In this document: one piece after another, positions 5,414 to 20,221 of the stretch
Layout of the letters: each line of letters begins with the position of its first letter
Numbering within the stretch: the first letter of the stretch is position 1
DNA from: an uncultured Oscillospiraceae bacterium
Lineage (GTDB): Bacteria > Bacillota > Clostridia > Oscillospirales > Acutalibacteraceae
Direction of reading: 5' to 3'
Length of the DNA: 36,043 nt
NCBI GenBank assembly: GCA_900555705.1
Contig: USLV01000001.1
Span: 1 to 36,043, forward strand
The notes under the pieces: model-generated
Databases searched by the model: none
Seen by the model: only the letters and a program-made list of their open reading frames with translations
Told to the model about the DNA's origin: nothing
Position numbers and translations under genes: made by a program

Positions 5414-7201
5414 CTATTCTGTGAGCGTCCGCCAATTCACGTTCTGGAATCGGGCCGCACCTTCAGCAACCTGCACGCCGATATATCCTCGGAGCGCCTG
5501 CATATGGCTAAATTGACATATCTCTTTGCCATTCAAAAAAATTGTTAACAATGAACCGTTTAGATGCAATACAAACCGAAAGCTCTCTCCAACTCGTATA
5601 CCGGTGGGGATTTTAATCAAATCACCGGCCGGTTCCCATACCTTGAGTGTGCCGTCAGCATCCATCACTACACAGGTAAAGCTGCTTAGATCTTGTGCAG
5701 CACGAGTCACCAGCATCGCGCCACCGGTGTTTAGTAAGGTGATATCTGCTTCTAATTGACCGTCGTCATAGATCTCAGAAGAAAGCAGCGCTGCGGTTTG
5801 GTCGGCAACACCCTCCGCTCCGTTATCGACTTCCCGCCAAGACATCCCCATGGGCTTCAATCCAGGGATATTACTGATAAATCCAGGGTGGACACAATGG
5901 AAACGGCAATGGGCGGCATGTTCTCCGTCGGCGGTGATGGCGGATAGTTCGGTTTGCCCGGGTATAAGCCCCTCCCAAACGGAATGGTCATCGTTTTCTT
6001 CAACCAGTGACACCGCGCAAGGATCATATGACCAAATGTAACGACCCGAAACAGCCTGACGAATTGGCGGGTGGGATGGCAGGGTAAACCGTTTGCCGGG
6101 CTTACCGGCCAGGTTTATTCTGTACGGCAAATCATCCCGCTTTTCTCCAATCGATATGGCAAGCAGGGGAGATCGAGTATCGCTTAAAGATGTCAGCAGA
6201 TATTCCAAAATCTCTCTTTCCCAAATGGCAGCCTGTTCCAGCGGCGCCATCACCCGATTGACCAGCCGTTTGTCGAAAGTGGTATAGAGTTTTAGCAGCA
6301 GCATTTTTGCCTTTCTTGCATTTTTGACCACTTTGCGATATTGAGCGTAAATATATTCTGCATTCGCCAGATAACCCAGTTCTCCCAGATGTCGAATCCG
6401 ATCGCTCATCAACTCTTTATGCTCACAGATGACGGATATAAACCGATAGTCCAAAAAGCAGCCGGTTTCCACACATTCCTGTAAAAAGGACTGAAACGCA
6501 TTATAAACTGACATCCCATAAGTGTAATATATCTGGTGTTCCCGTATGATATCGTTGGGAAAGATGTATTCGTAGCTGTTGACACTGTCCAAATAGTCTC
6601 GAATTCCCCGACGAATCAAAGGGATGTTGAGAACGTGATCGCGAGGATACCAACAGAGGAATTCAATTCCATTTCCCTGATATTTTTGTGCAACCAGTGA
6701 CGGTGCTTCTCGAAACGCGATTTCCATACTGGCGTAGTCCACCGTCATGCGGGTATACTGTTTGTTTTCATTATATGATACCACATAATACACTTCCTGT
6801 TCATCGTCATATCCATAGATGAACAGGTCGTGAAAGTTGTGCCAGCTTTTATAGGGCCGGGTATGTGGAATATAATATTCGTCCACTTCAAGATAAGGGT
6901 AATTCCCGACATCAATGTTTTCCCGCAGAAATTCGATCAACGTACAACTGCGGCGGGCAAGCCATGCCCGGCTGACCCGTTGGTAATAAACAAACGGACA
7001 GGCTTTCCAGACGGAATAGGGAAAGTAGAAATCCGCACGAAAATCTTTCTTATCCGTTGTGTCTGTCTTAACGGTTAATTGAATGTAATTGTTATAAAGC
7101 CATGTGTCGGCTTCCGCATGGTTGAGGACAATTCCAAGGATATCCGCATGGTAGTGGTAGCATTTGACAGGAGTATCGGCAAGGGGCAAGATTCGTTTCA
7201 T
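5414..7201 (-). CDS. Multidomain protein: an N-terminal BtrH_N / DUF4872-like domain (papain-like fold; acyltransferase or peptidase), then an Ig-like segment and a concanavalin/LamG-like C-terminal domain
   Basis: The long ORF has AT-rich codon usage. N-terminal features are ...VKCYHYHADILGIV... and ...LEVDEYYIPHTRPYKSWHNFHDLFIYGYDDEQEVYYVVSYN..., which match my recollection of BtrH_N. A helical region then resembles DUF4872. The C-terminal beta-rich region ends ...IFLNGKEICQF...GYIGVQVAEGAARFQNVNWR. Start set at ATG 7201 (MKRILPL) with GAAAGGTGG 8 nt upstream; the tracked start at 7213 is a GTG. Confidence 0.55.
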   Translation of the reverse strand: MKRILPLADTPVKCYHYHADILGIVLNHAEADTWLYNNYIQLTVKTDTTDKKDFRADFYFPYSVWKACPFVYYQRVSRAWLARRSCTLIEFLRENIDVGNYPYLEVDEYYIPHTRPYKSWHNFHDLFIYGYDDEQEVYYVVSYNENKQYTRMTVDYASMEIAFREAPSLVAQKYQGNGIEFLCWYPRDHVLNIPLIRRGIRDYLDSVNSYEYIFPNDIIREHQIYYTYGMSVYNAFQSFLQECVETGCFLDYRFISVICEHKELMSDRIRHLGELGYLANAEYIYAQYRKVVKNARKAKMLLLKLYTTFDKRLVNRVMAPLEQAAIWEREILEYLLTSLSDTRSPLLAISIGEKRDDLPYRINLAGKPGKRFTLPSHPPIRQAVSGRYIWSYDPCAVSLVEENDDHSVWEGLIPGQTELSAITADGEHAAHCRFHCVHPGFISNIPGLKPMGMSWREVDNGAEGVADQTAALLSSEIYDDGQLEADITLLNTGGAMLVTRAAQDLSSFTCVVMDADGTLKVWEPAGDLIKIPTGIRVGESFRFVLHLNGSLLTIFLNGKEICQFSHMQALRGYIGVQVAEGAARFQNVNWRTLTE

Positions 7202-7222
7202 AAGATAGACCACCTTTCATTT

Positions 7223-7240
7223 ACAGATGACGCCATCTGT
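7223..7240. promoter_or_regulatory. Palindrome in the promoter region of the 5414-7201 gene; possible operator
   Basis: ACAGATG-ACGC-CATCTGT has perfect 7-bp arms. It lies 22 nt upstream of the ATG, between the tandem terminator-like elements and the RBS. Confidence 0.3.
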
Positions 7241-7269
7241 TAACAAGGGCAGACACGGTCTTTCGGGAT

Positions 7270-7349
7270 AAAAATAGGCGCTGGCGGCGTTGTCCTCGTT
7301 GCCGGGCGTTAGCCCGGCGGCCTCGTCCGCCTTGCCAGTGCCCGTTTTT
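7270..7349 (-). terminator. Copy 1 of a duplicated long-hairpin element flanked by an A-run and a T-run; bidirectional terminator-like
   Basis: AAAAAT, then GGCGCTGGCGGCG...GCCGGGC-GTTA-GCCCGGC...CGCCTTGCCAGTGCC, then GTTTTT. The outer arms pair imperfectly and the apical hairpin is perfect. See copy 2. Confidence 0.4.
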
Positions 7350-7516: not shown

Positions 7517-8257
7517 TTATAGAATACGGGCATCCAGATGAAACGTCTGCCCGCTGACACCGCTGAAACAATCGGACGCGGCATAAAGCAAAAAATTCAC
7601 CAGATCATCCAGCGCGTCCGTACCATCCAACACACTTTGCTTTCTGGCCCGTGCAACCTTGTCCTCCCGACCATCATTAAGGCCGGTCTGTATAAACCCG
7701 GGGCAGACACTGTTGACAAGAATGTTATGTGCTCCCAGTTCTTTTGCCAGAGACTTGGTAAAGCCCGCGATAGCCGCCTTGGAGGTGGCGTAATTGCTTT
7801 GTCCCGCACTGCCGATCTGACCCATTAAAGAGGAAATATTAAACACCTTGCCCTTGCGGCGTGTTCGCATGTGTACGGTAAAGTATTTGCAGCATAGAAA
7901 ACAGCCTGTCAAATTTACGTCAATCACCCGCTGCCATACCTGTGTCTGCATATGTTCTACCGAATCGTCAGCACAAATACCGGCATTGTTGATCAAAACA
8001 TCCACATGCCCGAAATGCGCCAATGCCTGATCGTATAGAAGCCGTACGTCCTCCTCTCGCGATACATCCGCTTTCACTATCAGACAATCGGTCTGATGAG
8101 ATATATCCCGATATAGTTCCAGAGCCTCCCGCTCGCTTTGGCAGTAGTTGATGACGACATGTGCGCCCTCCCTTGAGAATGCGCGTGCCAGCGCACTGCC
8201 GATGCCTCTCGAGGAACCGGTGATCACCACAACTTTATCTTTCAAATTAATAATCAT
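7517..8257 (-). CDS. SDR-family oxidoreductase, 3-oxoacyl-ACP reductase (FabG)-like
   Basis: MIINLKDKVVVITGSSRGIGSALARAF carries the TGxxxGIG motif. NNAG is present, and the catalytic S...YxxxK appears as SNYATSKAA. 246 aa. Confidence 0.9.
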   Translation of the reverse strand: MIINLKDKVVVITGSSRGIGSALARAFSREGAHVVINYCQSEREALELYRDISHQTDCLIVKADVSREEDVRLLYDQALAHFGHVDVLINNAGICADDSVEHMQTQVWQRVIDVNLTGCFLCCKYFTVHMRTRRKGKVFNISSLMGQIGSAGQSNYATSKAAIAGFTKSLAKELGAHNILVNSVCPGFIQTGLNDGREDKVARARKQSVLDGTDALDDLVNFLLYAASDCFSGVSGQTFHLDARIL

Positions 8258-8273
8258 AGCGATATCCTATTCA

Positions 8274-10091
8274 TTATGAGATTTGGACACCCGACATATA
8301 TTTCTGCCCCTGTAGATGAAACAGATACGCATACTGTCCGTCCAAAGCCATCAGCTCCCGATGAGAACCGTTTTCTATGATCTTTCCGTTCTCCATCACC
8401 AAAATACGATCCATCAGCACGGTATTGGACATTCTGTGTGAAATCATCAGCAAGGTTTTATTCTCATACAGTTTCTTGAAATACGCCAGTATCCGATGCT
8501 CCGCTTCCGGGTCGAGAGAGGCGGTTGGCTCGTCCAAAATAATGGTATCAGATCCGCGAAAGACCGCGCGGGAAATAGCCAGCTTCTGGTTTTGTCCTCC
8601 GGACAGCTCCACGCCGTCCGGATCAAATATTTTGCCGACAAAAGTGTCCAGATTGCCGTTTCGATCAAAAATATCGTTGTGAAAATCAGAAAAGGCGAGG
8701 GCATCCCATATCCGGGCGTCGTCCTGCGTGTTGGCGGGATTGGATACGCCCACATTTTCTCTCACAGTAAAAGCATATACGTTATAATCCTGAAACACAC
8801 TGGACAGGCGGGAACGCAGGCTTTTGATATCCAGACAGCGCACATCCATGCCGTTGATATAAATAGAACCGGAATCGGGTTCATAAAATCGCATCAGCAA
8901 TTTGATAAGCGTAGTTTTACCGGAGCCGTTAATGCCGATGAGCGCGACCTTTTCTCCTTTGTTGATATGAAAGTTCACGTGGCTGAGAACCTGGCGGGCG
9001 GTACCGGGATAAGTAAAGCAGACGTCCCGAAATTCAATGGAGTTGATGGCATTGATCCGGAGCTCTCCCGAGGTCACCTCGCTTTCACTCAACAGGAAGT
9101 AGCGTTTGAAGTCCTCTATTTTCTGGTTATAACCGATATACATCGAGATGCTGCCGATCAAGCCGCTGATTCTGCCGGACAAGTTGCCGTAGAGGCCGGG
9201 GATATAGTTCAGATCGCCCAGCGTATAGGTGCGCCCGATAATCCGTATGATAATATAAACCTGTATACCAATATTCAGGGCTGTTTGCGGCAGTCCAAGG
9301 AGGATATTGATAAAATTATTTTTCTTGTTAAAGGATTTGCGCCGCAGGAACAGCTCTTTGTCCTTTTTTAAAAATCGTGCCAGCAACGTATCGGCCATGC
9401 CGAAAAAGCGCAGCTCTTTGGCCGCCTTTTTATTGAACAGCAGCGAGTGGATATAGCCGTTCTGCCGGTCCTCCCGGAAAATGCTTTTGTCAAACTCATA
9501 CCGCCGTTTCTCCAGTCCCTTTCTGAAAAGGAAGCTGGGGATCAGCGACAAAAAGGTAAGCAGTGTCAGCCAGACGTTGATCCGCAGGGTCAGTATCAGC
9601 GCCGTAATCAGGTTGACGATAGTAGTGAAGGTGCCAACGGTGGAAAACACAATTTCATGCATGGCATGAGAATTGTTGCGGCTGCGCGACATATCATCAA
9701 ACTTATCCGGTATATCGAAATAAGAGATATCGATATCGGCCGATTTCCTCATCAGGGAAATATTGATATAGGTTAACAGATTCTGAGTCTGCAGACCGGA
9801 TATTTTTCCGCCGAAATCGCTGATAAAGGTTACCAGAATACTGATGCCGAAATATAAAACCAGGCTGGACACAACGGAGGCCCATAGCGAAGCGTCGCCG
9901 GTCACATCGGTGCTCAGGATAGCCGAAATGTCGTCAATGATTCCCTTCATCACGTACATGTTGAAGAAAGGTACGATTCCCGTTATGAGGTTGATGGTCA
10001 TAATAACGAAAAAATTGCATTTATTGGCCTTAAAAACCAATTGCAGGCAAAAGGCGTAATTGCGAATGAAATTTTTCAGCTTTCCAATCAT
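8274..10091 (-). CDS. ABC exporter, fused permease and ATP-binding subunit (half-transporter B)
   Basis: 605 aa with an N-terminal 6-TM-type domain. Walker A is GINGSGKTT, the signature is LSGGQNQK and Walker B is IILDEP. Its ATG overlaps the upstream gene's TGA (ATGA at 10091-10088). There is no N-terminal C39 peptidase domain. Confidence 0.9.
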   Translation of the reverse strand: MIGKLKNFIRNYAFCLQLVFKANKCNFFVIMTINLITGIVPFFNMYVMKGIIDDISAILSTDVTGDASLWASVVSSLVLYFGISILVTFISDFGGKISGLQTQNLLTYINISLMRKSADIDISYFDIPDKFDDMSRSRNNSHAMHEIVFSTVGTFTTIVNLITALILTLRINVWLTLLTFLSLIPSFLFRKGLEKRRYEFDKSIFREDRQNGYIHSLLFNKKAAKELRFFGMADTLLARFLKKDKELFLRRKSFNKKNNFINILLGLPQTALNIGIQVYIIIRIIGRTYTLGDLNYIPGLYGNLSGRISGLIGSISMYIGYNQKIEDFKRYFLLSESEVTSGELRINAINSIEFRDVCFTYPGTARQVLSHVNFHINKGEKVALIGINGSGKTTLIKLLMRFYEPDSGSIYINGMDVRCLDIKSLRSRLSSVFQDYNVYAFTVRENVGVSNPANTQDDARIWDALAFSDFHNDIFDRNGNLDTFVGKIFDPDGVELSGGQNQKLAISRAVFRGSDTIILDEPTASLDPEAEHRILAYFKKLYENKTLLMISHRMSNTVLMDRILVMENGKIIENGSHRELMALDGQYAYLFHLQGQKYMSGVQIS

Positions 10092-11950
10092 ACCGTCACC
10101 CCCGCCGCCTCATCCACGAAATTCGAAGCCTGCAGATTGAACAAATACGCATACCGTCCGTTTCGTGCCATCAGTTCTTCATGGGTGCCATCCTCCAGCA
10201 CCACGCCATCCTCAATCACCAGGATTCGGTCCATCAGCGTTGTATTCGACAGCCGGTGGGAGATCATCAGCAGGCCGCGACCGCTATACAGCCGCTCAAA
10301 CTGTCGGAGGATTTCATATTCCGCCACTGGGTCGAGAGAAGCGGTTGGCTCGTCCAGAATCACCATATCCGCCTTGCGGAACGCGCCGCGGGCAATGGCC
10401 AGCTTTTGCTTTTGCCCGCCGGACAGCTCCAGTCCATCGTCTGAAAAATCCCGGCTGATATCGACGTCAAGAGAATCTATTCGTTCCAGAATGCCATGAT
10501 CCAGTTCGGCGAGAGTCAACGCCTCCCGGATGCGGGCGTCGTCCTCCCGGTTTTCATAATCTGACATTGCCACATTGTCTCTCACACTGAGCGAATAGGT
10601 GATATAATCCTGAAATACCGTGGAAAACACCTGGCGCAAGCTATTTAGCGTATACGCCTTGATATCCAGACCGTTTATGAGAATCTGTCCCTCATCCACA
10701 TCATAAAATCGCAGCAGCAGCTTGACAATGGTAGACTTTCCGGCGCCGTTCAGTCCAACCATGGCAATCTTCTCATGGCCCTGAATCCGCAGATTCAGAT
10801 GGTTCAGAACCGGCTGTTCTGTCAGCGGATAGGTGAACATCACATCTCGGAATTCAATGGTTTCCAGCTTTTTCAGTTTTCTTGTTCCGTTGTCCGGCAC
10901 AAAGGCCTTCAGCTTCATAAAGGAATCATATTTTTCAATGGTATAAGAGGTCTCGCCCAAACGCGCGATATTGTCAACGAGGTTGGTAAAGCTGCTCTTC
11001 AGGGTCGAAGTCATCCCGAGCAGATAGGCGAAATCGCCGATGGCGTTGCGTCCCTGAAAAATGCCCAGCAGCACCATGTACATGCTGATCCCGATCCCAA
11101 TCGTAGGCAGCATATTGCACAAGGAGTCCGCAAATCCCAGACGAACCGTCAGCCTTCTTTTTCCGCTGATATACGTGTTCCAATGCTGCCTGTATTTGTC
11201 CACCACCATATCGGACATGTCGTAAAACCGGACCTCCTGTGCGGTTTGCTTGCCCATAGCCACTCCGGCCAGATAGGAGACGCGGCGCATGATATTCTGG
11301 GTCTGCAGACCGTACTCGAACTGACGGCGAAGATACCGGCCCCGTGTGAAGAGAGGCGGCAGGGTAAACAGAACAATCACCAACGGAATCCAGGCATTGG
11401 TGGACAAAATGGTAACGGTGGTAGAGATGACAAGCGAGATCGTATTAATGATAAAGCTGAGGGTTCTCGTATACAGGACGCTCAACTGGGATTTCCCATT
11501 ATTGGCCTGCTCAATATGGTCATAATACCGGTCGTTGTCAAAATAGGAGATGTCGAGCGACGCCACTTTTTGTGCCATTTCCGTGTTGATATACTGATTG
11601 AAGCGGAGCTGCTGGGTTTCCCCGATCAACGAGGAAGCAAAATTGAGCAGGGTGAGGCCGAGAGAGAGCGCGGTAGAAACCAGTATCCAGAAACCCACCG
11701 GTTCCACCGCTTCATGGAAAGACCAGTGATTGATCAGCGCGAAGCTGAGGGTGTTGATCAGTTCCCTGCCGCAGTACATGAGCACAAAAGAGGACAGGGT
11801 ATTGATCAACGTGACGATTGTGGTCACCACGAAGAGACCGGGACTCGACATAAAAACCTTTTTGACGGAAAATGCGAGGAGCTTTAATAAAGCCAGCCGA
11901 CCGCCGGTATCCTTTTTATTCTTTTCAGAGGCAGAGGGGCCCTTTACCAT
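10088..11950 (-). CDS. ABC exporter, fused permease and ATP-binding subunit (half-transporter A)
   Basis: 620 aa. Walker A is GLNGAGKST, the signature is LSGGQKQK and Walker B is VILDEP. It is translationally coupled to the next ABC gene, which suggests a heterodimeric exporter. Confidence 0.9.
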   Translation of the reverse strand: MVKGPSASEKNKKDTGGRLALLKLLAFSVKKVFMSSPGLFVVTTIVTLINTLSSFVLMYCGRELINTLSFALINHWSFHEAVEPVGFWILVSTALSLGLTLLNFASSLIGETQQLRFNQYINTEMAQKVASLDISYFDNDRYYDHIEQANNGKSQLSVLYTRTLSFIINTISLVISTTVTILSTNAWIPLVIVLFTLPPLFTRGRYLRRQFEYGLQTQNIMRRVSYLAGVAMGKQTAQEVRFYDMSDMVVDKYRQHWNTYISGKRRLTVRLGFADSLCNMLPTIGIGISMYMVLLGIFQGRNAIGDFAYLLGMTSTLKSSFTNLVDNIARLGETSYTIEKYDSFMKLKAFVPDNGTRKLKKLETIEFRDVMFTYPLTEQPVLNHLNLRIQGHEKIAMVGLNGAGKSTIVKLLLRFYDVDEGQILINGLDIKAYTLNSLRQVFSTVFQDYITYSLSVRDNVAMSDYENREDDARIREALTLAELDHGILERIDSLDVDISRDFSDDGLELSGGQKQKLAIARGAFRKADMVILDEPTASLDPVAEYEILRQFERLYSGRGLLMISHRLSNTTLMDRILVIEDGVVLEDGTHEELMARNGRYAYLFNLQASNFVDEAAGVTV

Positions 11951-12118: not shown

Positions 12119-12165
12119 GTCCATGTTATGTCATGATCCTTGGGAAACGGTTTATTTCCATATTT

Positions 12166-12193
12166 CCCGTGGCGGGTAACGTCCCGCCACGGG
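12166..12193 (-). promoter_or_regulatory. Stem-loop downstream of the last precursor gene; possible attenuator or processing site
   Basis: Perfect 11-bp GC-rich stem CCCGTGGCGGG (12166-12176) / CCCGCCACGGG (12183-12193) with a 6-nt loop. On the minus strand it is followed by AAATATGG, not a T tract. Confidence 0.4.
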
Positions 12194-12285
12194 CATGGTT
12201 CAATGTTCTCTCAGCCGTCCGGCCCAGCGCTGCTGCGCAGGGCCGGTGAACGGCGTGAGGTTATTATACCGTGACCAAAGGGATG

Positions 12286-12468
12286 TTACTTCGAACCGCC
12301 GGAACAGTCACCAGAGCAGCTGCCAGCGCAGTCGCCGGAGCAGGTTCCGGCGCAGGTTCCGCCGCATGCGCCCTCGCAATCGCCGGAGCAGGTTCCCGAG
12401 CAGGTAAACCAGCAGCTGCTGGCGGCCGCCACAAAGTCCGTGTTCTGATTGCCCAACATATAGGTCAT
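12286..12468 (-). CDS. CXXX-repeat RiPP precursor peptide 3 (60 aa, 10 Cys at strict i+4 spacing)
   Basis: MTYMLGNQNTDFVAAASS-CWFT-CSGT-CSGD-CEGA-CGGT-CAGT-CSGD-CAGS-CSGD-CSGGSK. AAGGAGG lies 7 nt upstream of the ATG. I verified the translation by hand from the DNA. Confidence 0.85.
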   Translation of the reverse strand: MTYMLGNQNTDFVAAASSCWFTCSGTCSGDCEGACGGTCAGTCSGDCAGSCSGDCSGGSK

Positions 12469-12598
12469 AAAAACGCCTCCTTGTTATGGTTTCAATCGTC
12501 CAAGCTATTGGGATACATTGTTCACACCATATCTTGTGTATGCTCGCTCAGTATGGCTCCTGTCGCATCGCAGCCTGGACAGTAAAGGACCGAAAAGG

Positions 12599-12760
12599 TT
12601 ACTTTGAGCTCGCGGTACTCGAGCGGCAGCTGCCATGACAACTGCCCTTGCAGCCGCCATCGCAATTGCCCGCGCAGGAACTATAACAGCTGCCCGTACA
12701 ACCGTCACAGGAACGGGCCACCGGAGACATTGCATCGGCTCCGCCCAGCAAATAATTCAT
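12599..12760 (-). CDS. CXXX-repeat RiPP precursor peptide 2 (53 aa, 8 Cys). It is below the length cut-off of the supplied ORF track.
   Basis: Hand translation from ATG 12760 gives MNYLLGGADAMSPVARS-CDG-CTGS-CYSS-CAGN-CDGG-CKGS-CHGS-CRSSTASSK, ending at TAA 12601-12599. AAAGGAGG lies upstream. The tracked ORF 12505..12735 is in a different frame and is Ala/Arg-rich. Confidence 0.8.
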   Translation of the reverse strand: MNYLLGGADAMSPVARSCDGCTGSCYSSCAGNCDGGCKGSCHGSCRSSTASSK

Positions 12761-12848
12761 GAGAAGTCCTCCTTTCTGCTAAGATGGATCCGCTATGTAT
12801 GCCAAACGGATCGACTCTTTGAGAGCCCCGCCTGTCGGCGGACGAAAG

Positions 12849-13031
12849 TCATTTCGAGCTGCCTGCGCAGCTGTCTTTGCAGGAACCGTGGCAGTCGCCA
12901 CTGCAGGCCCTGGCGCAGGCAGCCTCACAATCGCTTGTGCAGGCGGCCGTGCACCCGCCGCTGCAATAGTGAATGCACCAGCCGGCAGCCGGTATAAAGG
13001 CACCCTGATTTTGGCCAGTTAAATAGGTCAT
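12849..13031 (-). CDS. CXXX-repeat RiPP precursor peptide 1 (60 aa, 10 Cys at strict i+4 spacing)
   Basis: MTYLTGQNQGAFIPAAGW-CIHY-CSGG-CTAA-CTSD-CEAA-CARA-CSGD-CHGS-CKDS-CAGSSK. AAAGGAGG lies upstream. The leader start (MTY-x-x-G) and the C-terminal SK are shared with the paralogues. Confidence 0.85.
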   Translation of the reverse strand: MTYLTGQNQGAFIPAAGWCIHYCSGGCTAACTSDCEAACARACSGDCHGSCKDSCAGSSK

Positions 13032-13172: not shown

Positions 13173-14483
13173 TCATACTGAAGCCATATGATTTACAAAA
13201 AAATTCAGCTTTTTGCTGCCGACGTCGGGGGTGATCTCCTTCACATACGTGAACGTCCAACGGGTGTTCCCAAAGCCGTAGGGCTCGAGCGCTTCCAGAA
13301 AACGGGTGCGAATCTGCCGGTCCAGCTCGTCGCATTGCCTGTCCGCCGGCACAACGAGCTGCAGCTCAAAGTCGGAGATGTCCTTTTGGATCGCCCGGAA
13401 CTGCAAAATGCATTGGTCAAGATAGGTGTTGACGGCCTCCACGGCATAAAACATAATGACGCATTCTATCTCCGTGCCGTCCGGCCGGGTGATCAATTCG
13501 TTGCCGCGCCCGGCCTGCACGTCCAGAATCGGATGAATATTGCCGCAGGAGCAGCTCTCTCCCGGAAGCAGCCGGGCACGGTCGCCCAGATCATAGCGGA
13601 TAAAGGGCATGGCCTTGTTGTTCAGTCCTGTGACGCAGACATTACCCACTTCCCCCGGCGGTACAGGGCGGCCATTTTCTATAATTTCCACATGCACGTT
13701 GCGGGGCATCACATGCAGGTGTCCTTCGGCACATTCGAACGCAATGCCGTTGACCTCCCGGGCGCCGTATTCGTTTACTGCCGGCACCTGCATGATCTCC
13801 TCAATCGCCTGCCGGCAGGCGGGCTGTAAGAACTCGCCGGCCAGTTCAATATATTTTAAGCTTTTGATCGGCGGCAGGCCGTGGGACTGCATATGGCGGG
13901 CCAGCAGCAGGACGGTGGAAGGATGCCCCATCATCCACTCCGGTTCGAACTGAACGATATGGCGATAGTATGTATTGAGCGCTCGTTCGCTGAAATCGAG
14001 TTTGCTGAACGACAGGACAATGCCGTTTTCCCGCAGCATGATGCGAGGTGAGAACACCTGCTTGACGGTTTCACTCACATCGTTTCCCTCGTCGTCGAGT
14101 CCGCCGCTTTCCCGATAAGCAATTGAATGGAAAAACACGCATTTTGAATCCGGCATAATACCGAAGCGCTGGCGACGCCGTGACCAAAGGCTCATCAGGG
14201 AGCGAATATGCTGGTGCTTTTCCCAGTAGATGTCCAGGATTTTGCCGGTTGAACCGGAGGTCCGATCATGCAGAAGATCCTTTTTGCTGTATTCGTCGGA
14301 GAGAAAGTCGTCCGCTCTGGCGCGTACATCCTCTTTTTTCACAATGGGGAGCGATTCGAAAACCGACGCAATATCCTGACTGTCCGGTCGGATGCCGGCC
14401 CTGTCATATAGCTCTCTGTAAAAGGCTGTGTGACGGTAAGCGTACGCTACCATATCCGACAACTTGTCCTGATACTTATCCAT
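13173..14483 (-). CDS. Adenylate-forming enzyme of the phenylacetate-CoA ligase (PaaK) / F390 synthetase / CapK family
   Basis: MDKYQDKLSDMVAYAYRHTAFYRELYDRAGIRP...LPIVKKEDV...DRTSGSTGK is the typical PaaK-like N-terminus and P-loop-like motif. Start set at ATG 14483 with GGAGGG 8 nt upstream. It overlaps the ACP stop by 8 nt. Confidence 0.8.
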   Translation of the reverse strand: MDKYQDKLSDMVAYAYRHTAFYRELYDRAGIRPDSQDIASVFESLPIVKKEDVRARADDFLSDEYSKKDLLHDRTSGSTGKILDIYWEKHQHIRSLMSLWSRRRQRFGIMPDSKCVFFHSIAYRESGGLDDEGNDVSETVKQVFSPRIMLRENGIVLSFSKLDFSERALNTYYRHIVQFEPEWMMGHPSTVLLLARHMQSHGLPPIKSLKYIELAGEFLQPACRQAIEEIMQVPAVNEYGAREVNGIAFECAEGHLHVMPRNVHVEIIENGRPVPPGEVGNVCVTGLNNKAMPFIRYDLGDRARLLPGESCSCGNIHPILDVQAGRGNELITRPDGTEIECVIMFYAVEAVNTYLDQCILQFRAIQKDISDFELQLVVPADRQCDELDRQIRTRFLEALEPYGFGNTRWTFTYVKEITPDVGSKKLNFFVNHMASV

Positions 14484-14739
14484 TTGTCGAGCCCTCCGCC
14501 GACAGCGCCTGCCGCACATATTCCCACAGCTTGCCATACGAGGTCAAAATTTCATAGTCCAGCATATCGTCGTCAAATTCGATGCCGAACAGGTTTTCGA
14601 TATCCACTACCAGTTTGACAAAGCTGATGGAGTCAAATTCCAGATCGTCGACCAGATCCGTTTGTTCATTGATGTCTTCGTGGGTCAACTCCTGTCGTTT
14701 CGCCGAAACCAGCACCAGGTCCTTGAGTTTAGCTTCCAT
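14476..14739 (-). CDS. Acyl carrier protein
   Basis: 87-aa acidic protein with the phosphopantetheine attachment motif LEFDSISFVKLV (DSI/DSL type), followed by helices typical of ACP/PCP. Confidence 0.85.
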   Translation of the reverse strand: MEAKLKDLVLVSAKRQELTHEDINEQTDLVDDLEFDSISFVKLVVDIENLFGIEFDDDMLDYEILTSYGKLWEYVRQALSAEGSTNG

Positions 14740-14760
14740 GGTATTTTCCGCCTTTCTACT

Positions 14761-15087
14761 TTATTGTGCTTGCTGTTCCTTTGGCTTTGAAAAGATTATC
14801 TTTTTATGAACGTCAACCAACAACAGACTGTTTTCATCATGTACCAGCATGTATTTCTCGTCCATCCGTTGCCACCATTTGGAGAAAGCACGGTAGGTAT
14901 CCCGGTAAAGCTCGCGATAGGAGGGCGCTTTCTCCAGCCCCACCTCCGCCATCAGCTCCGGATGATCCTTTAAGCCCAGCCGCAGGCTGTGGTAGGCAGA
15001 AAGACGTTCCAGAAGAACGATATATTCGTCGTTTTCCTCTTCCGTAATGGAGACCGGCTGCATCAACTCATACATCATATTTTGCAT
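14761..15087 (-). CDS. Small helical partner protein of the maturase; candidate CXXX repeat peptide modification system protein
   Basis: 108-aa ORF. AGAGGTG lies 6 nt upstream of ATG 15087, inside the 3' end of the rSAM gene, giving a 20-nt overlap. No recognisable catalytic motif. The family name is recalled from NCBIfam/TIGRFAM naming and was not verified. Confidence 0.5.
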   Translation of the reverse strand: MQNMMYELMQPVSITEEENDEYIVLLERLSAYHSLRLGLKDHPELMAEVGLEKAPSYRELYRDTYRAFSKWWQRMDEKYMLVHDENSLLLVDVHKKIIFSKPKEQQAQ

Positions 15088-17224
15088 TTAACACACCTCT
15101 GTTTGAAATATAGATATCAATAAACGGGTCGTCGTACGTCGGCTTATCATCCGACTGGATCAGCTGCTTCTCCAACAGGGCCTTTTTGAGCTTTTGGGAA
15201 ACGGCATGATTGAGATGGCTGATCCGACATTGGATTCTGGGCGAGATCGCGAGTTCTCTTGTGCCGGCTTTATGAAGATACATGCAGCGGTTGCAGATCT
15301 TGACGTCACAGCTTGTGCACAAAGGAGAGGCGTCCCGACGGCAGAATTTGCTCTGCGACAGATCGATGCCATGCTCAAGGTCTCCAATGCTGTCCATTCC
15401 GTTAAAATAAAAGGCGGGGCAGATATAGAATTTCCCGTCCGGTGCCAGCGCGGCAGTGGTCGCACCGGCAGAACAATCGATTTCATTGGTTTTGTCAAAT
15501 GCATCCGTCAGCAAATTCAGAGCAGGCTTGCAGCCCGCTTCATACTGCTCGATCAGATAATCAGAGAGCGTTTCCAGCTGTTCTTTATACAGCGCGTAGT
15601 CCGCTTCCTTCCAAGACAACAGATCCTGCAGAAAAATGTTCAGTCTGGGCGACTTGACGAACAGAGCTTTTGCCATATCCGCCATATTCGACAGCGTATT
15701 GCGGGAAACCAGCAGAATGGTGGCCTCACCGCCCTCGAAACCATCATATACCTGATTGTCATGAACCGTTATGGTGCCTGCTGCTCCGTCTCTGTCGGCG
15801 CCGTTGATCTGAAAATACATATTATCCACCTGGTTCAGCCCATGATCGCATTCGCCGAGGAACACAGGAACCAACTGGTTATCGGTGCAATAGGCCAGTC
15901 CCTTTTTCAAAACTTCTTCGGACATTACTACATCGCTTTCGGGCCGGGATTCATAGGAGCAGTGAGGCGTGATATTGTCGGCGGTAATGAAATACAGATG
16001 CTTCAGGCCGATATTTCCTATCGAATTGGCTTTGGCGGTGGTAAGGGGAGCGGTCTTGCCCGTCGCCTCGCTGTACCGTTTCCAGAAATACCGATTGGCC
16101 CGGGCATTTGCTTTGTGCATATTGCAAAGAGAGATGGTGCGTTCAAAGATGGTATCCTTATCCGATGCCTCATAATTATGGGCTACGCACCATCCGCAGC
16201 CGAGTCCCACATCACAGGTATTGCAGTCATGCGGACTTTGGGATTTCCAGTCCAGCGAGATAAAAGAACGAAGCATGTCCATATTGATACCGTGTTCGAT
16301 ATCTCCCACAGTGAGCTTCTGATGGCCGGGACTGAAGCACATCTGCAAAAAGCGGATACAGGGATAAATAGATCCTTCACTGTCAAAGGCAAACGTCTTG
16401 TATCCCGCGCCGCAGCGATTACGATTCAAAGCCTCTGTTGTAACCGGAAGACCTACGGTAGCATTAAAAAAGGAGGTCGAAACCTTGTCCCACAGTTCAT
16501 TTTCAATTACGTAATCCGCCAGTTCCATGAGCTGATTCTCGAAAATGACATCGTCACCCTCCTGCCAGACATCTTCGTACACCAGATTCGCGGTAGCGAT
16601 AGAAAGACCGGTGTTCCAGAGATGAATGATGCTGTCTTTTAAATAGGGCAGGTCGGCGTGGGCAAAGGTTGCCTTTGTACTGGCACCCGGGAATTGACGC
16701 AACCAAAGCGGAACGTTTTTGATGACATCGTCATACGAGCCGGTACCGTCAATCTTCTTTCTGGACAAGTCGTGCTTCTCTTTGTTGCCGTCCAGACTGA
16801 TGGTGAACGAGCAGTGTCCTTCGTGCTTCTTGAAATAAGCCTGTACCTTTTCTTTATGATACAGTGTTCCGTTGGACGAAAAGGAAAACCGGTATCGATC
16901 GAACCACTTATGGCCGGTCGCGTACATCTTTGCTACAATATAATCGCTGATTTTATCGATGAGGTCGATCTCCAGTAACGGCTCGCCGCCTATAAAATCC
17001 CACACAACGGCGTCTTCGCTACAGATATAGGGATCTTCCAACACGTAATCTACGATCTTTTTCGCTGTTTCATAGTTCATCACATGAAACTCATTTTTGC
17101 CTACCATGTAGCAATAGGTACAACGGAGATTACAGTCCTCTGTCACGCAGAATGTCAGGGTCACACATTTTCCGCTGCGCCATGACTGGGCCCCCTGTGC
17201 CATATAGACGTTTGCATCATACAT
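15068..17224 (-). CDS. Radical SAM/SPASM peptide maturase (CXXX-repeat target type) with a long C-terminal extension carrying a second SPASM-like Cys cluster
   Basis: The CNLRCTYCY motif (CxxxCxxC) is near the N-terminus, followed by GGEPLL. The first SPASM region is ...RCGAGYKTFAFDSEGSIYPC...CNTCDVGLGCGWCVAHN. The second is ...CSAGATTAALAPDGKFYICP...CTSCDVKICNRCMY.... Start set at ATG 17224 (MYDANVY) with GAGGAAG upstream. It overlaps the ligase stop by 8 nt. Confidence 0.88.
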   Translation of the reverse strand: MYDANVYMAQGAQSWRSGKCVTLTFCVTEDCNLRCTYCYMVGKNEFHVMNYETAKKIVDYVLEDPYICSEDAVVWDFIGGEPLLEIDLIDKISDYIVAKMYATGHKWFDRYRFSFSSNGTLYHKEKVQAYFKKHEGHCSFTISLDGNKEKHDLSRKKIDGTGSYDDVIKNVPLWLRQFPGASTKATFAHADLPYLKDSIIHLWNTGLSIATANLVYEDVWQEGDDVIFENQLMELADYVIENELWDKVSTSFFNATVGLPVTTEALNRNRCGAGYKTFAFDSEGSIYPCIRFLQMCFSPGHQKLTVGDIEHGINMDMLRSFISLDWKSQSPHDCNTCDVGLGCGWCVAHNYEASDKDTIFERTISLCNMHKANARANRYFWKRYSEATGKTAPLTTAKANSIGNIGLKHLYFITADNITPHCSYESRPESDVVMSEEVLKKGLAYCTDNQLVPVFLGECDHGLNQVDNMYFQINGADRDGAAGTITVHDNQVYDGFEGGEATILLVSRNTLSNMADMAKALFVKSPRLNIFLQDLLSWKEADYALYKEQLETLSDYLIEQYEAGCKPALNLLTDAFDKTNEIDCSAGATTAALAPDGKFYICPAFYFNGMDSIGDLEHGIDLSQSKFCRRDASPLCTSCDVKICNRCMYLHKAGTRELAISPRIQCRISHLNHAVSQKLKKALLEKQLIQSDDKPTYDDPFIDIYISNRGVLNAKYDV

Positions 17225-18728
17225 TGTGTACTTCCTCGTTTCTTTTTGTTTTTCCGTTATAGGTTTTTGCCAGCGCTTTGACAAATTCGATCCTGCGAGG
17301 CGCTTTATAGCCGGAAAGCCTGTCCAGGCAATAGTTAATCAGCGCCCCTTCGCTAACCTCCTCTCCCTCCTTTATAACAATCTTGGCGCATGGCAGTTCT
17401 CCCATATATTCATCCGGCACGCCGTAAACCATGACGTCCGCCACACAAGGATGACTGAATAACACCTCTTCTACTTCCTCCGGGTAAATGTTGATTCCGC
17501 CGCTGATAATCATATTTTTTCTGCGGCCTGTCAGGTAGAGATAGCCTTCTTCGTCCAGCCGGCCAAGATCGCCGGTATACAGCCAGCCATTCCGTAAGAC
17601 AGCGGTTGTGGCGGAATCATTTTTGTAATACCCCTTCATTACGTTTTCGCCGCGCACTACAATTTCGCCAATTTTTCCATGATCCAAAACCTGTCCCTGT
17701 TCATCCACCACGGCTACCGTTACACCGGGAATAGGTCGTCCAACCGAACCCAGCTTGCGAACAGAATCTTCCGGCAATAAGGCGGTTACACGAGGAGATG
17801 CCTCTGTTTGCCCGTAGGTTTGCACAAAACCAACAGTGGGGAAGGCGCTGATCAGTTGCCGCAGCTTATCCACCGGCATTTTTCCTCCGCCAAAACAGAT
17901 ATACCGGAGAGAATGGATGTCGTATTCCTCTCGGCGGCGATAATCCAATAGGGAGAGCAGCATAGTGGGTACGCCTGTAAAATTGGTAACGCGGCATGTC
18001 TCCACAGCAGAAAAGAATTTCTTTGCAAGAAACATTCCTTCCAAAATCACCATAGATGCCCCCAGGTAAACATGAGTCAGGAACTGCGCCGTGTTACAGT
18101 ATCCAAAATACATGGGGAGGGCAATGAGAACAACATCATCTGCATTTAGAGAAAGGGAAGCGATGTTGGAACGTATATTGCACAACAGATTTTGATGAGT
18201 GAGCATTACCCGCTTGGGATGACTGAGTGTTCCCGACGTATGTAACATTACAGCAGTGGCATTTCGCCCTTCGTTATCCGCGACGCCTGCGGTCTTGATA
18301 ATCCATCCTTTTTCTCCTGCCAGCTTGGTCACATGCAAGGTATCTGTGTTTAGCAGATAGATCGAGTAAGGATAAGACTCTAATATCTGAGTTAATCCCG
18401 GTTGCAGCGCTGAATTGGTGATTATCAGATCAATTTCACAATTTTCCAGCGTGCTCCGTATCTCCGGCCCTTTGGACTGAGGGCCAATGGGTATAATAGT
18501 TCTATTTGCATATAGAATTCCAAAATATGAAACAGCATAGGCAATGGAGTTGGGCAAAAATAATGCCACATGGCATGAACTTGGAGACAGGCATCGAGAG
18601 AGAGAAATGGCTATATTTGTCGCTTTTGCATGCCACTCACGGTAGGATAGCCGTTGTTCTCCTTGCGTAATCGCCGTTTTGTCGTGGTATTTCCAGCGCG
18701 ACAATAGTCCACAGAGATGATCTATCAT
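17217..18728 (-). CDS. Class I adenylate-forming enzyme (acyl-CoA/acyl-ACP synthetase, ANL superfamily)
   Basis: ANL core motifs are present: LHTSGTLSHPKRV, YGQTEASP, GWLYTGDLGRLDEEGYLYLTGRRKNMIISGGINIYPEEVE, and a C-terminal YNGKTKR. Start set at ATG 18728 with AAGGAGGG 8 nt upstream. Confidence 0.88.
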   Translation of the reverse strand: MIDHLCGLLSRWKYHDKTAITQGEQRLSYREWHAKATNIAISLSRCLSPSSCHVALFLPNSIAYAVSYFGILYANRTIIPIGPQSKGPEIRSTLENCEIDLIITNSALQPGLTQILESYPYSIYLLNTDTLHVTKLAGEKGWIIKTAGVADNEGRNATAVMLHTSGTLSHPKRVMLTHQNLLCNIRSNIASLSLNADDVVLIALPMYFGYCNTAQFLTHVYLGASMVILEGMFLAKKFFSAVETCRVTNFTGVPTMLLSLLDYRRREEYDIHSLRYICFGGGKMPVDKLRQLISAFPTVGFVQTYGQTEASPRVTALLPEDSVRKLGSVGRPIPGVTVAVVDEQGQVLDHGKIGEIVVRGENVMKGYYKNDSATTAVLRNGWLYTGDLGRLDEEGYLYLTGRRKNMIISGGINIYPEEVEEVLFSHPCVADVMVYGVPDEYMGELPCAKIVIKEGEEVSEGALINYCLDRLSGYKAPRRIEFVKALAKTYNGKTKRNEEVHNV

Positions 18729-18813
18729 GTGAAAACCCTCCTTAATATAGATATAAGTATCACGCATATATATATTACATCACATAATTTGATAAAATCA
18801 TTCCTTTTATGCT

Positions 18814-18842
18814 ATTATATTTGAAAAATAAAACAATGTCAA
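18814..18842 (-). promoter_or_regulatory. Consensus sigma-A promoter of the RiPP operon
   Basis: Minus strand reads TTGACA (18842-18837), a 17-nt spacer, then TATAAT (18819-18814). A very AT-rich UP-like tract lies upstream. The -10 box is about 85 nt upstream of the first ATG at 18728. Confidence 0.65.
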
Positions 18843-19294
18843 TAATATTAAATAAAATAATAAGATATTCGACAAAAAATATTGTTTTTATATTGTGGAC
18901 AAATTTCCTTGTCATATTTATGGAGGGTGACCGATGTGCAGAAGTTGAATGGGAAAGAACGATCTTTCCGCTTCCTGTGACATCTAAGTCGGCAGATTCG
19001 AAGGTGAAATGAGATGTTGCGTGTTGATCGGCATACTTTTGCAATGCGTCTCAACCCCTTACGGGTTAACACATGTCGCATGTTTTTTGTCCTGTGCCAT
19101 ATGGAAAAGAGCAGGTTCCAGTCAACATACATGATCGTTTCCATGGACGGAAAGCACTGGATCAGGAAATAGCGGCTGCAGCATGCGGGGATGTGTCTGA
19201 ATTCTGTTAAGTGACGAGCCGTTAGCACGGAACGGTACATGTCTTTTATATAGATTTTATTGCATGAGTACGAGACTGGTCGTTTGATTTTCCT

Positions 19295-19328
19295 TATAAA
19301 ACAAAGAACCGGGCTTTTAGCCCGGTTC
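19295..19328 (-). terminator. Rho-independent terminator (minus strand)
   Basis: GAACCGGGCT (19306-19315) pairs with AGCCCGGTTC (19319-19328). On the minus strand it is followed by TTTGTTTTAT. Confidence 0.6.
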
Positions 19329-19930
19329 CGCGACACTGCGAACTTTTTTCTTTTTTCAGATCCTGATAATCATCAAAAGCTGTGATGAAACAAAAGAGCG
19401 AAAGAAATTTTCGCTGACGTTGACGGCCCTGGCAAGGCCGGCCGCGTTGTAAACAGTAGATGGAAGAATCATCTGTGAAAGCGATCTGCACAGTGGGTTT
19501 CGTATGGTTTCATCGAGTCACGATAAAATAACCTCTGCCAAGTCCTGGCGGATTTTGTGCTCTGATGGTGCAGGATTGACGGAGGTTTTTAGCTCTGTCA
19601 CAGCAGACTGACCCGACAAGTGAATGTCACCCCAACGAACATCTACAGGTGATACCTTGACCAATAGATAGTATCCCACGAATCGGATTTCCGGCAAGCG
19701 CACCTGCATCGCACAGCGATGGTATGGGACTGTTTTACGCGCATCATTTACGTAAATAACCAAAGCCTAGATAAGATAATATCTGCGCTTTGATTATTTG
19801 TTTTGTTGTAACAGAGTAAATGAAAACAGCCTTTCGGCTGGCATGGTCACTTCACAATGTCGTCGCTATCCACACGGGTTTCTGCCCTTTTGAACAATTT
19901 TCCCAGAACCCTGCGGTTCGCCGCCTGCTC

Positions 19931-19974
19931 CTACAATAAAGAAAAGAACAGCCCGCCCTGTCGGGCAGACTGTT
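19931..19974 (-). terminator. Terminator of the tRNA operon; bidirectional appearance
   Basis: Stem AGAACAG (19943-19949) / CTGTTCT (19968-19974) with an inner CCCG/CGGG helix. It is followed by TTTCTTTATTG on the minus strand and by TTTTTT on the plus strand. It lies directly downstream of tRNA-Val. Confidence 0.6.
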
Positions 19975-19981
19975 CTTTTTT

Positions 19982-20058
19982 TGGTGGGCGTAAACGGACT
20001 CGAACCGCTGACCTCTTGCGTGTGAAGCAAGCGCTCTAACCAGCTGAGCTATACGCCC
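19982..20058 (-). tRNA. tRNA-Val (anticodon CAC), CCA encoded
   Basis: The reverse complement is GGGCGTATAGCTCAGCTGGTTAGAGCGCTTGCTTCACACGCAAGAGGTCAGCGGTTCGAGTCCGTTTACGCCCACCA. I folded the cloverleaf by hand; the anticodon loop is TTCACAC. Confidence 0.9.
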
Positions 20059-20066
20059 GTAAAAAA

Positions 20067-20141
20067 TGGTGACCCGGACGAGAATCGAACTCGTGTTACC
20101 GCCGTGAAAGGGCGGTGTCTTAGCCGCTTGACCACCGGGCC
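20067..20141 (-). tRNA. tRNA-Glu (anticodon TTC), CCA encoded
   Basis: The reverse complement is GGCCCGGTGGTCAAGCGGCTAAGACACCGCCCTTTCACGGCGGTAACACGAGTTCGATTCTCGTCCGGGTCACCA. The anticodon loop is CTTTCAC. Confidence 0.9.
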
Positions 20142-20144
20142 AAA

Positions 20145-20221
20145 TGGTAGCGGTAGTCGGATTTGAACCAACGACACTGCGGGTATGAACCGCATGCTCT
20201 AGCCAACTGAGCTATACCGCC
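20145..20221 (-). tRNA. tRNA with anticodon CAT; elongator tRNA-Met, or tRNA-Ile2 if modified with lysidine
   Basis: The reverse complement is GGCGGTATAGCTCAGTTGGCTAGAGCATGCGGTTCATACCCGCAGTGTCGTTGGTTCAAATCCGACTACCGCTACCA. The anticodon loop is TTCATAC. It lacks the three G-C pairs in the anticodon stem that mark initiator tRNA. The 1-72 pair is G-U. Confidence 0.85.

Follow-up and report, generated by a model that had tools for sequence, protein, structure and literature searches.

A CXXX-repeat radical SAM gene cluster with three cysteine-ladder precursors and an acyl-carrier gene set in an uncultured Oscillospiraceae bacterium

Contig USLV01000001.1 of an uncultured Oscillospiraceae bacterium (GenBank assembly GCA_900555705.1) raises a question: are three short, cysteine-rich open reading frames (ORFs) on its minus strand genes, and what would be made from their products? 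The stretch analysed here, hereafter referred to as the window, comprises positions 1 to 36,043 of this contig, 36,043 nucleotides in all. An initial annotation, made from the letters of the sequence, had described the ORFs as precursor peptides of 60, 53 and 60 amino acids (aa), each with its own strong ribosome-binding site. Here, we compared the locus with homologous loci, and we find that the precursors are real genes, located within a minus-strand operon in which all genes are co-oriented. By its domain matches, the system is assigned to the CXXX-repeat radical S-adenosylmethionine (SAM) system covered by the models TIGR04114-04119, a kind already known in silico, since the maturase passes the cut-offs of both TIGR04115 and TIGR04119. 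What is new here is the cluster, which carries an acyl-carrier gene set in place of the usual S8 peptidase and represents a rare sub-group. We hold it to be fairly probable that the three ORFs arose by tandem duplication and are genuine genes for the precursors of a ribosomal, post-translationally modified CXXX-repeat peptide which is made by the mechanism proposed below.

The coordinates of the three ORFs and the GGAGG motifs in front of them agree with the initial annotation, the distance from GGAGG to ATG being 9 nucleotides for peptide 3 and 7 nucleotides for both peptide 2 and peptide 1. The runs of C-x-x-x (C-x3) units that it had described, with 10, 8 and 10 Cys in peptides 1, 2 and 3, respectively, were recovered position by position. 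In peptides 1 and 3, Cys residues are found at positions 19, 23 and so on to 55, which gives nine consecutive i+4 spacings. In peptide 2, they are found at positions 18, 21, 25 and so on to 45; the sole irregularity, a C-DG-C unit, gives one spacing of 3, which is followed by six of 4. The bias in unit composition was likewise as described, with Gly at position 2 in 16 of the 24 units and Ser, Asp, Thr or Ala at position 3 in 20 of them. The leaders, which have 18, 17 and 18 aa in peptides 1, 2 and 3, begin with M-[TN]-Y-[LM]-x-G, and S-K is the C-terminal pair in each peptide. When each core was shuffled in 200,000 trials, the observed i+4 run was matched 0, 1 and 0 times for peptides 1, 2 and 3, respectively, and the pattern (C-x3)x4-C, sought in all six frames across the window, matched these three ORFs only. 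The Cys periodicity of the ORFs is far beyond chance.

Locus L001, a close relative whose enzymes are 94-97% identical to those of the window, holds orthologues of all three window peptides and a fourth precursor. All 28 Cys codons (10 in peptide 3, 8 in peptide 2 and 10 in peptide 1) are kept between the two loci, and the changes within them are synonymous (TGC/TGT). The precursors differ by two indels, of 12 and 3 nucleotides, both multiples of three, and conservation extends to the start codons, the ribosome-binding sites and the terminal Ser-Lys-stop. The remaining core positions evolve rapidly. They are identical at 55 of 92 sites, and the rate of nonsynonymous substitution (dN) in the cores is 0.11-0.28, compared with 0.012-0.028 in five neighbouring genes, a divergence about ten times faster than that of the neighbouring enzymes. 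Fixed Cys residues in a fast-evolving core are the signature of a translated peptide, and the precursors are real genes. The conserved Cys codons, the in-frame indels and the fast core together exclude the antisense frames, which the initial annotation had named as a challenge to its own proposal. It had also pointed out that the middle gene can easily be overlooked, and L001 justifies this caution: of its four precursors, the gene caller reported a single one, and in place of the others it predicted a spurious antisense gene of 258 aa. The practical point is that gene callers overlook such precursors and call antisense artefacts instead.

Traces of repeat expansion and duplication can be seen in the two loci. 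Segment 12299-12406 of the peptide 1 gene contains a periodic 12-nucleotide DNA repeat, with six overlapping copies that are 60-71% identical to the reference copy. Its period corresponds to the C-x3 unit, which suggests that the core of peptide 1 expanded unit by unit. The four precursors of L001 occupy its positions 14186-15546, and the extra one has 85 aa with 16 Cys. L001 also has, at 14482-14655, a duplicated 3' fragment of the gene for the PaaK-like enzyme that is described below; a tandem duplication thus copied the end of this ligase gene together with a precursor.

The proposal that the peptides are precursors acted on by a radical SAM maturase is upheld by their surroundings: the maturase gene is found 2 kb upstream, in the same operon. 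Its product consists of a radical SAM/SPASM domain fused to a CXXX repeat peptide maturase domain. It scores 489.3 bits against TIGR04115 ('radical SAM peptide maturase, CXXX-repeat target family'; cut-off 350) and, over residues 522-724, 226.7 bits against TIGR04119 ('CXXX repeat peptide maturase'; cut-off 150). The PGAP name of the first model is already attached to many of the maturase relatives that we scored, more than 3,700 from gut and environmental Clostridia and Bacteroidales. The longest maturase ORF begins 20 codons (17225-17284) upstream of the start used in the L001 gene calls; translation more likely begins at the ATG at 17224, which gives a protein of 718 aa. The CX3CX2C motif is located at C51/C55/C58, and the seven SPASM Cys residues are invariant. 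Since the radical SAM motif begins as early as residue 51, the enzyme has no N-terminal peptide-recognition domain; its alignment to CteB starts at residue 96 of CteB, past the recognition domain of the latter. CteB is also the closest solved structure to the N-terminal half of the maturase (Protein Data Bank entry 5wgg, E 4e-29).

The C-terminal half was modelled with AlphaFold2 (residues 398-738, encoded by 15068-16093; predicted local distance difference test, pLDDT, 77). The model resembles whole radical SAM-SPASM maturases, the best match being CteB (E 1.9e-9, template modelling score 0.59), followed by anSME and SuiB. A seven-Cys, SPASM-like pattern is kept in this half, and the CX3CX2C motif is missing. 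Because of this combination, the 'CXXX maturase' domain looks like a second, catalytically degenerate radical SAM-like module, and, as modelled, like a duplicate of the catalytic half that has degenerated. Bacteroidales encode these halves of the maturase as separate genes.

The window shares further traits with the CXXX-repeat system: the gene after that of the maturase encodes a small protein, a probable partner, the adjoining precursors have about 55-60 aa with a Cys at every fourth residue, an ABC (ATP-binding cassette) exporter is encoded, and the leaders open, as in the Clostridium members, with M-x-[YFH]-L-[LF]. Precursors with a like leader start and a Cys-rich core adjoin homologous maturases in dozens of loci. 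The leaders, whose alignment had been suggested as a way to define a recognition motif, have the start M-[DTNE]-[YFH]-L-[LFT], common to all three Firmicutes groups and thus conserved across the Firmicutes part of the family. The window precursors fall just below the curated models. TIGR04114, with its cut-off of 20, is narrowly missed, peptide 2 reaching 19.2 bits and a second score being 17.9 bits. A window precursor scores 25.1 bits against TIGR04117, for which the cut-off is 50; the matches of peptide 3 to TIGR04117 and TIGR04114 are weak. A profile built from the three window peptides also matches proteins of 1,400-1,800 aa (P0258, P0259, P0261 and P0267), each of which has up to 15 separate C-x3 repeat stretches.

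What the maturase does to the cores can be approached through its relatives. Thioether cross-links are the best inference for the window peptides, as PapB is the best match of the maturase outside its own family and CteB is the closest structure. Among the NCBIfam models, PapB (NF047865) ranks next after the maturase's own family; the score of 205 bits stays below its cut-off of 340. In the PapB reaction, the sulfur of Cys is bonded to the carbon adjacent to a carboxylate, and several thioethers are formed in one peptide (PMC12373016). PapB and its substrate PapA (freyrasin, a ranthipeptide) have in common with the window the repeated short Cys units, and neither maturase has an N-terminal recognition domain. 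However, the PapA units are C-X3-D, with an obligatory carboxylate, and PapB lacks both a second radical SAM-like module and carrier-protein genes. CteB, which acts on SCIFF peptides (thermocellin), is the closest structure for both halves of the maturase. Nevertheless, the maturase reaches 121.5 bits against the SCIFF maturase model TIGR03974, the cut-off of which is 425, it lacks the N-terminal recognition domain of CteB, and SCIFF peptides have six Cys in 45 residues, compared with the 8-10 periodic Cys of the window precursors. Assignment to the sactipeptides, in which the Cys donors are confined to the N-terminal half of the core and the acceptors to a Cys-free C-terminal half, does not fit either, with Cys residues that span the whole core and a maturase without an N-terminal recognition domain.

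Three points limit the thioether reading. First, Asp is found at position 3 (i+3) in 5 of the 24 units, and most units have Ser, Thr, Ala, Gly or Asn there; since most units offer no carboxylate acceptor, the rule followed in the window cannot simply be that of PapB. Second, spacings of 2, 3 and 4 between Cys residues all occur in the sub-group to which the window belongs, the other carrier-type loci having mainly C-x-G-C. The strict i+4 spacing does not seem to be required by the system, as those loci use mostly C-x-x-C and C-x-C. Third, a search of the available literature found no experimental paper on the chemistry of any TIGR04115 enzyme, and the CXXX-repeat system itself is known from comparative genomics only. 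The family is large, and the window, with its three precursors and one maturase, provides a compact test case for the action of this enzyme on its peptide.

The operon can be described as follows. In the direction of transcription, the genes encode a FadD-like ligase, the maturase, the 108-aa partner protein, an acyl carrier protein (ACP), a PaaK-like enzyme and the three precursors; RNA hairpins come next, followed by two ABC half-transporters, a FabG-like short-chain dehydrogenase/reductase (SDR) and a BtrH_N-like protein. Stop and start codons overlap at the ligase/maturase, maturase/partner and ACP/PaaK junctions. The features are listed in Table 1.

Table 1 Features of the operon, in order of transcription (window coordinates).
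Feature	Coordinates	Strand	Length and remarks
FadD-like acyl-CoA/acyl-carrier ligase	17217..18767	minus	516 aa; stop codon overlaps maturase start
Maturase, with radical SAM/SPASM and CXXX repeat peptide maturase domains in one protein	15068..17284	minus	738-aa ORF from TTG
Small accessory (partner) protein, probable divergent 'CXXX repeat peptide modification system protein'	14761..15087	minus	108 aa
Acyl carrier protein (ACP)	14476..14739	minus	87 aa; PF00550 PP-binding 36.2 bits, cut-off 20.8
PaaK/F390-synthetase-like adenylate-forming enzyme	13173..14537	minus	likely start ATG 14483, 436 aa
Precursor peptide 3	12849..13031	minus	60 aa, first of three in operon; sequence MTYLTGQNQGAFIPAAGW-CIHYCSGGCTAACTSDCEAACARACSGDCHGSCKDSCAGSSK
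Precursor peptide 2	12599..12760	minus	53 aa; sequence MNYLLGGADAMSPVARS-CDGCTGSCYSSCAGNCDGGCKGSCHGSCRSSTASSK
Precursor peptide 1	12286..12468	minus	60 aa, last of three; sequence MTYMLGNQNTDFVAAASS-CWFTCSGTCSGDCEGACGGTCAGTCSGDCAGSCSGDCSGGSK
Two strong RNA hairpins (12210-12259 and 12158-12198)	12158..12259	minus	between last precursor and ABC exporter genes
ABC exporter half-transporter 1	10088..11950	minus	620 aa; ABC_membrane and ABC_tran domains
ABC exporter half-transporter 2	8274..10091	minus	605 aa
FabG-like short-chain dehydrogenase/reductase (SDR)	7517..8257	minus	246 aa; PF00106 195 bits
BtrH_N-like protein with C-terminal lectin-like (3-keto-disaccharide hydrolase / DUF1080) domain	5414..7213	minus	likely start ATG 7201

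Comparison of the loci distinguishes three layouts in Firmicutes. The canonical layout of Clostridium consists of an ABC exporter, an S8 peptidase, the maturase, the partner protein and the precursors. The window differs from it by having no S8 peptidase, by the addition of a five-gene acyl-carrier set, by two ABC half-transporters instead of one, and by precursors that all end in [SA]-K. In the carrier-type layout, genes for the FadD-like ligase, the ACP, the PaaK-like enzyme, the SDR and, where the contig allows, the BtrH_N-like protein are arranged in synteny. This set was found in eight loci (the window, L001/L002, L003, L087, L089, L091, L092 and L095) and in none of 80 species-representative loci. 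In a neighbour-joining tree of the maturases, the carrier-type loci group beside a sister group (L088, L093, L094 and L012), the layout of which has two ABC genes and neither a peptidase nor carrier genes. In Bacteroidales (for example L051 9157-13494, from Prevotella merdae), the precursors lie upstream and have leaders of the twin-arginine type (SRREFFKK...), and in such loci, including L051, a TatC gene comes after that of the partner protein.

The carrier set comprises two adenylate-forming enzymes. The FadD-like ligase matches PF00501 with 249 bits and PF13193 with 66 bits, and its closest entry in the Protein Data Bank is FadD13 (3r44, E 3.5e-66). The PaaK-like enzyme has its best NCBIfam matches in the DVU_1553 family and PaaK, all below cut-off, and phenylacetate-CoA ligases in the Protein Data Bank match it with E 7e-25. 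It is a rare protein, with only about ten clusters at 43% identity or more among 5.8 billion proteins, and a metagenome scan with its alignment yielded only two more loci. Its longest ORF begins 18 codons (14484-14537) upstream of the start in the L001 gene calls; this 5' extension (MASCGNMCGRRCRRRARQ) is probably untranslated, because it is rich in Cys and Arg and overlaps the ACP gene. In the ACP, the attachment residue Ser37, within an F-D-S-I motif, is invariant across six loci. The SDR scores about 218 bits against FabG-type models, below the equivalog cut-offs. The BtrH_N-like protein matches PF14399 with 36.5 bits (cut-off 29.7) and PF06439 with 30.1 bits. It has orthologues in L001, L087, L089 and L095, in which H124 and Y-G-Y-D 129-132 are invariant. 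Both ABC half-transporters lack a peptidase domain, and half-transporter 1 resembles bacteriocin and MsbA-type exporters.

Taken together, the genes suggest a mechanism. The short leader (M-x-Y/F-L-x-G...) would bring the peptide to the 718-aa maturase, where it might be bound by the degenerate radical SAM-like/SPASM module of the enzyme or by the TIGR04116-type partner protein. The radical SAM half would take hydrogen atoms from the core and join the Cys sulfurs to carbons of neighbouring residues, and, to judge from the homology to PapB and CteB, the outcome would be a series of small thioether rings. The FadD-like ligase, the PaaK-like ligase or both would then activate an acyl unit or another carboxylic acid, which would be carried on the ACP and tailored by the SDR. 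For its transfer to the peptide, the BtrH_N-like protein is the most plausible enzyme, with the invariant C-terminal Lys as the best candidate for the predicted acceptor. The product would be secreted by the heterodimeric ABC exporter.

Some precedent exists for such a combination. Selidamides, lipolanthines/goadvionins and lipoavitides are made from ribosomal peptide clusters with fatty-acid-type activation and carrier-protein genes, and in selidamides the acyl acceptor is the side chain of a Lys or Orn. These systems use GNAT-type acyltransferases and have a different core chemistry. In the window, no GNAT-family acyltransferase was found among the scanned ORFs of the island that holds the operon, and the acylation is a prediction. 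BtrH, in turn, is an acyltransferase that moves its cargo from a carrier protein to an amine (BtrH/BtrI, butirosin biosynthesis). As in that system, genes for a PF14399 protein, a discrete carrier protein and adenylating enzymes occur in one cluster; the substrate in the window would be a peptide and not an aminoglycoside, and a lectin-like domain is fused C-terminally. If borne out, acylation in this sub-group could extend the small number of known routes to acylated ribosomal peptides by one that depends on a carrier protein. Two further enzymes occur in related loci. L089 has an extra GNAT acetyltransferase gene (19010-19516) between those of the SDR and the BtrH_N-like protein, and it is the sole carrier-type locus with one; in L095, a gene for a phosphopantetheinyl transferase (6739-7278) is found 3 kb upstream.

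The terminal Lys, which had been put forward as an acylation site, is supported as such in one respect and weakened in another. In its favour, the cluster encodes machinery for an acyl carrier, and [SA]-K is the ending of each of the 22 complete precursors from the eight carrier-type loci, with the Lys 4-5 residues past the last Cys (8 in window peptide 2). In the sister group, in contrast, none of eight precursors ends in Lys and the tails are mostly hydrophobic (GGFMF, GSLFW, GSLFLG); among precursors of canonical loci, one of 11 ends in Lys. That Lys tails go with acyl machinery and hydrophobic tails with its absence provides a concrete hypothesis that can be tested. Taken to its full extent, it describes a new class of hybrid natural product, in which the 8-10 periodic Cys residues would form a thioether ladder, made by a tandem active/degenerate radical SAM enzyme, and the C-terminal Lys would be acylated from a dedicated ACP by a BtrH-like transferase, the acyl-lysine replacing in function the hydrophobic tails of the sister clade. 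We offer this joint claim tentatively and think it unlikely to hold in all of its parts.

The acceptor role is weakened by tails in Bacteroidales. Precursors there often end in ...SCAGSSK or ...CAGSTK, in loci without ACP, ligase or SDR genes, and the ...CAGSSK tail is nearly identical to that of the window itself. Since the tail is shared by loci that have no carrier genes, it has some carrier-independent function. Moreover, tails with a basic final residue after a Ser/Gly stretch are common among 107 profile hits. This leads to another explanation of the same CXXX-repeat peptide, in which Ser-Lys would be a family-wide element of recognition, processing or charge, serving the core maturase, the exporter or a protease, and not an acyl acceptor. 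The carrier genes would then modify another site, such as the new N-terminus exposed by removal of the leader or a Ser, Thr or Cys residue, and the BtrH_N-like protein, which would have a papain fold, would be the leader peptidase. With the S8 peptidase missing, it is the only candidate protease, and PF14399 is related to C39-type peptidases; it could thus replace the S8 peptidase of the canonical loci.

Other features of the BtrH_N-like protein also speak against its assignment as a transferase. Its match to PF14399 spans only about 50 residues, in the last third of the domain, and the expected nucleophile, the N-terminal Cys14, is not invariant, being replaced by Ser or Thr in orthologues. 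Furthermore, the proposed route does not account for two adenylating enzymes next to a single carrier protein. On the other hand, sister loci L088, L093 and L094 have neither an S8 peptidase nor a BtrH_N-like protein, which suggests that the BtrH_N-like gene was gained together with the carrier set and not as a replacement protease. This joint gain slightly favours an acyltransferase over a leader peptidase. In addition, Lys tails in Firmicutes track the carrier set, as the counts given above illustrate. Weighing both sides, we find the recognition or processing role of the terminal Lys at least as well supported as acylation, for which the residue is a plausible acceptor; the whole of this alternative, including the leader peptidase, appears possible, albeit somewhat unlikely.

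The thiols may also have been kept free. Metal or iron-sulfur binding by a thiol ladder, as in a metallothionein-like peptide or a metallophore, would require the radical SAM enzyme to modify few positions and to leave most Cys residues unchanged. The window cores are 25% Cys with small residues between, and most units have no obvious acceptor residue, which would agree with such a function. So would the twin-arginine leaders and the adjacent TatC gene of the Bacteroidales loci, this pathway being one that exports folded or cofactor-bearing cargo. In the window, however, export goes through an ABC transporter, as for bacteriocins, and the enzymes with known chemistry to which the maturase is most closely related use up the Cys thiol by forming thioethers. 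The fast divergence of the non-Cys core positions is also more in keeping with an antagonistic or signalling molecule than with a chelator. We therefore consider metal binding improbable, and the thioether ladder remains the preferred reading of the cores.

Other chemistry directed at Cys, namely azoline/azole formation of the heterocycloanthracin type or lanthionine formation, is brought to mind by repeat cores rich in Cys, Ser and Gly, which look superficially like heterocycloanthracin, and by a trace match to TIGR03601 (11.6 bits, E 0.33, cut-off 35); with no YcaO cyclodehydratase, dehydrogenase or lanthionine synthetase among all scanned island ORFs, both readings are effectively refuted by the gene content and hardly credible. 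As for the last alternative, in which the region is non-coding or the antisense Ala/Arg-rich frames of the plus strand (12271-12585, 12635-12997 and 12795-13022) are the coding ones, the long antisense ORFs do exist and the gene caller accepted one of this kind in L001, but the conservation of the Cys codons, of the reading frame and of the start and stop signals described above, together with homologous peptides that adjoin homologous maturases across phyla, makes its probability negligible.

The partner protein is probably a divergent member of its family. Against TIGR04116 it scores 35.1 bits (E 1.1e-8, cut-off 50), and its orthologue in L087 scores 51.1 bits. A partner-type gene is found in the equivalent position in nearly all loci of the family. 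The search for homologues with the 108-aa protein returned near-identical sequences only, and for this reason its AlphaFold2 model is poor (pLDDT 64).

The operon fills a low-GC island at about 5.1-19.9 kb, with a GC content of about 0.49, compared with 0.60 in the flanks. The island is bordered by genes for tRNA-Val, tRNA-Glu and tRNA-Met (19982-20221), beyond which lies an Rnf operon. As the low-GC island stands beside three tRNA genes, the cluster was probably acquired horizontally. Attachment (att)-like repeats of the tRNA ends were sought at the other border of the island and none was found.

The hairpins between the last precursor and the exporter genes lie in a region with a minimum free energy of -74.3 kcal/mol over 151 nucleotides (z-score -8.1), and none of 200 shuffled sequences folds as well. 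Because no U-tract follows them, they do not form a canonical terminator; they are likely to be an attenuator or a transcript-stabilising element. A search of Rfam returned nothing except the three tRNAs.

Upstream of the operon, a 162-aa ORF at 18848-19336 was judged spurious on account of its odd composition, rich in Arg, Cys and Lys, and of the absence of a family match; its similarity in L001 is limited to a stretch of 28 residues. The surrounding segment, 18770-19980, is non-coding and AT-rich over 1.2 kb, and the promoter of the operon is presumably located in it.

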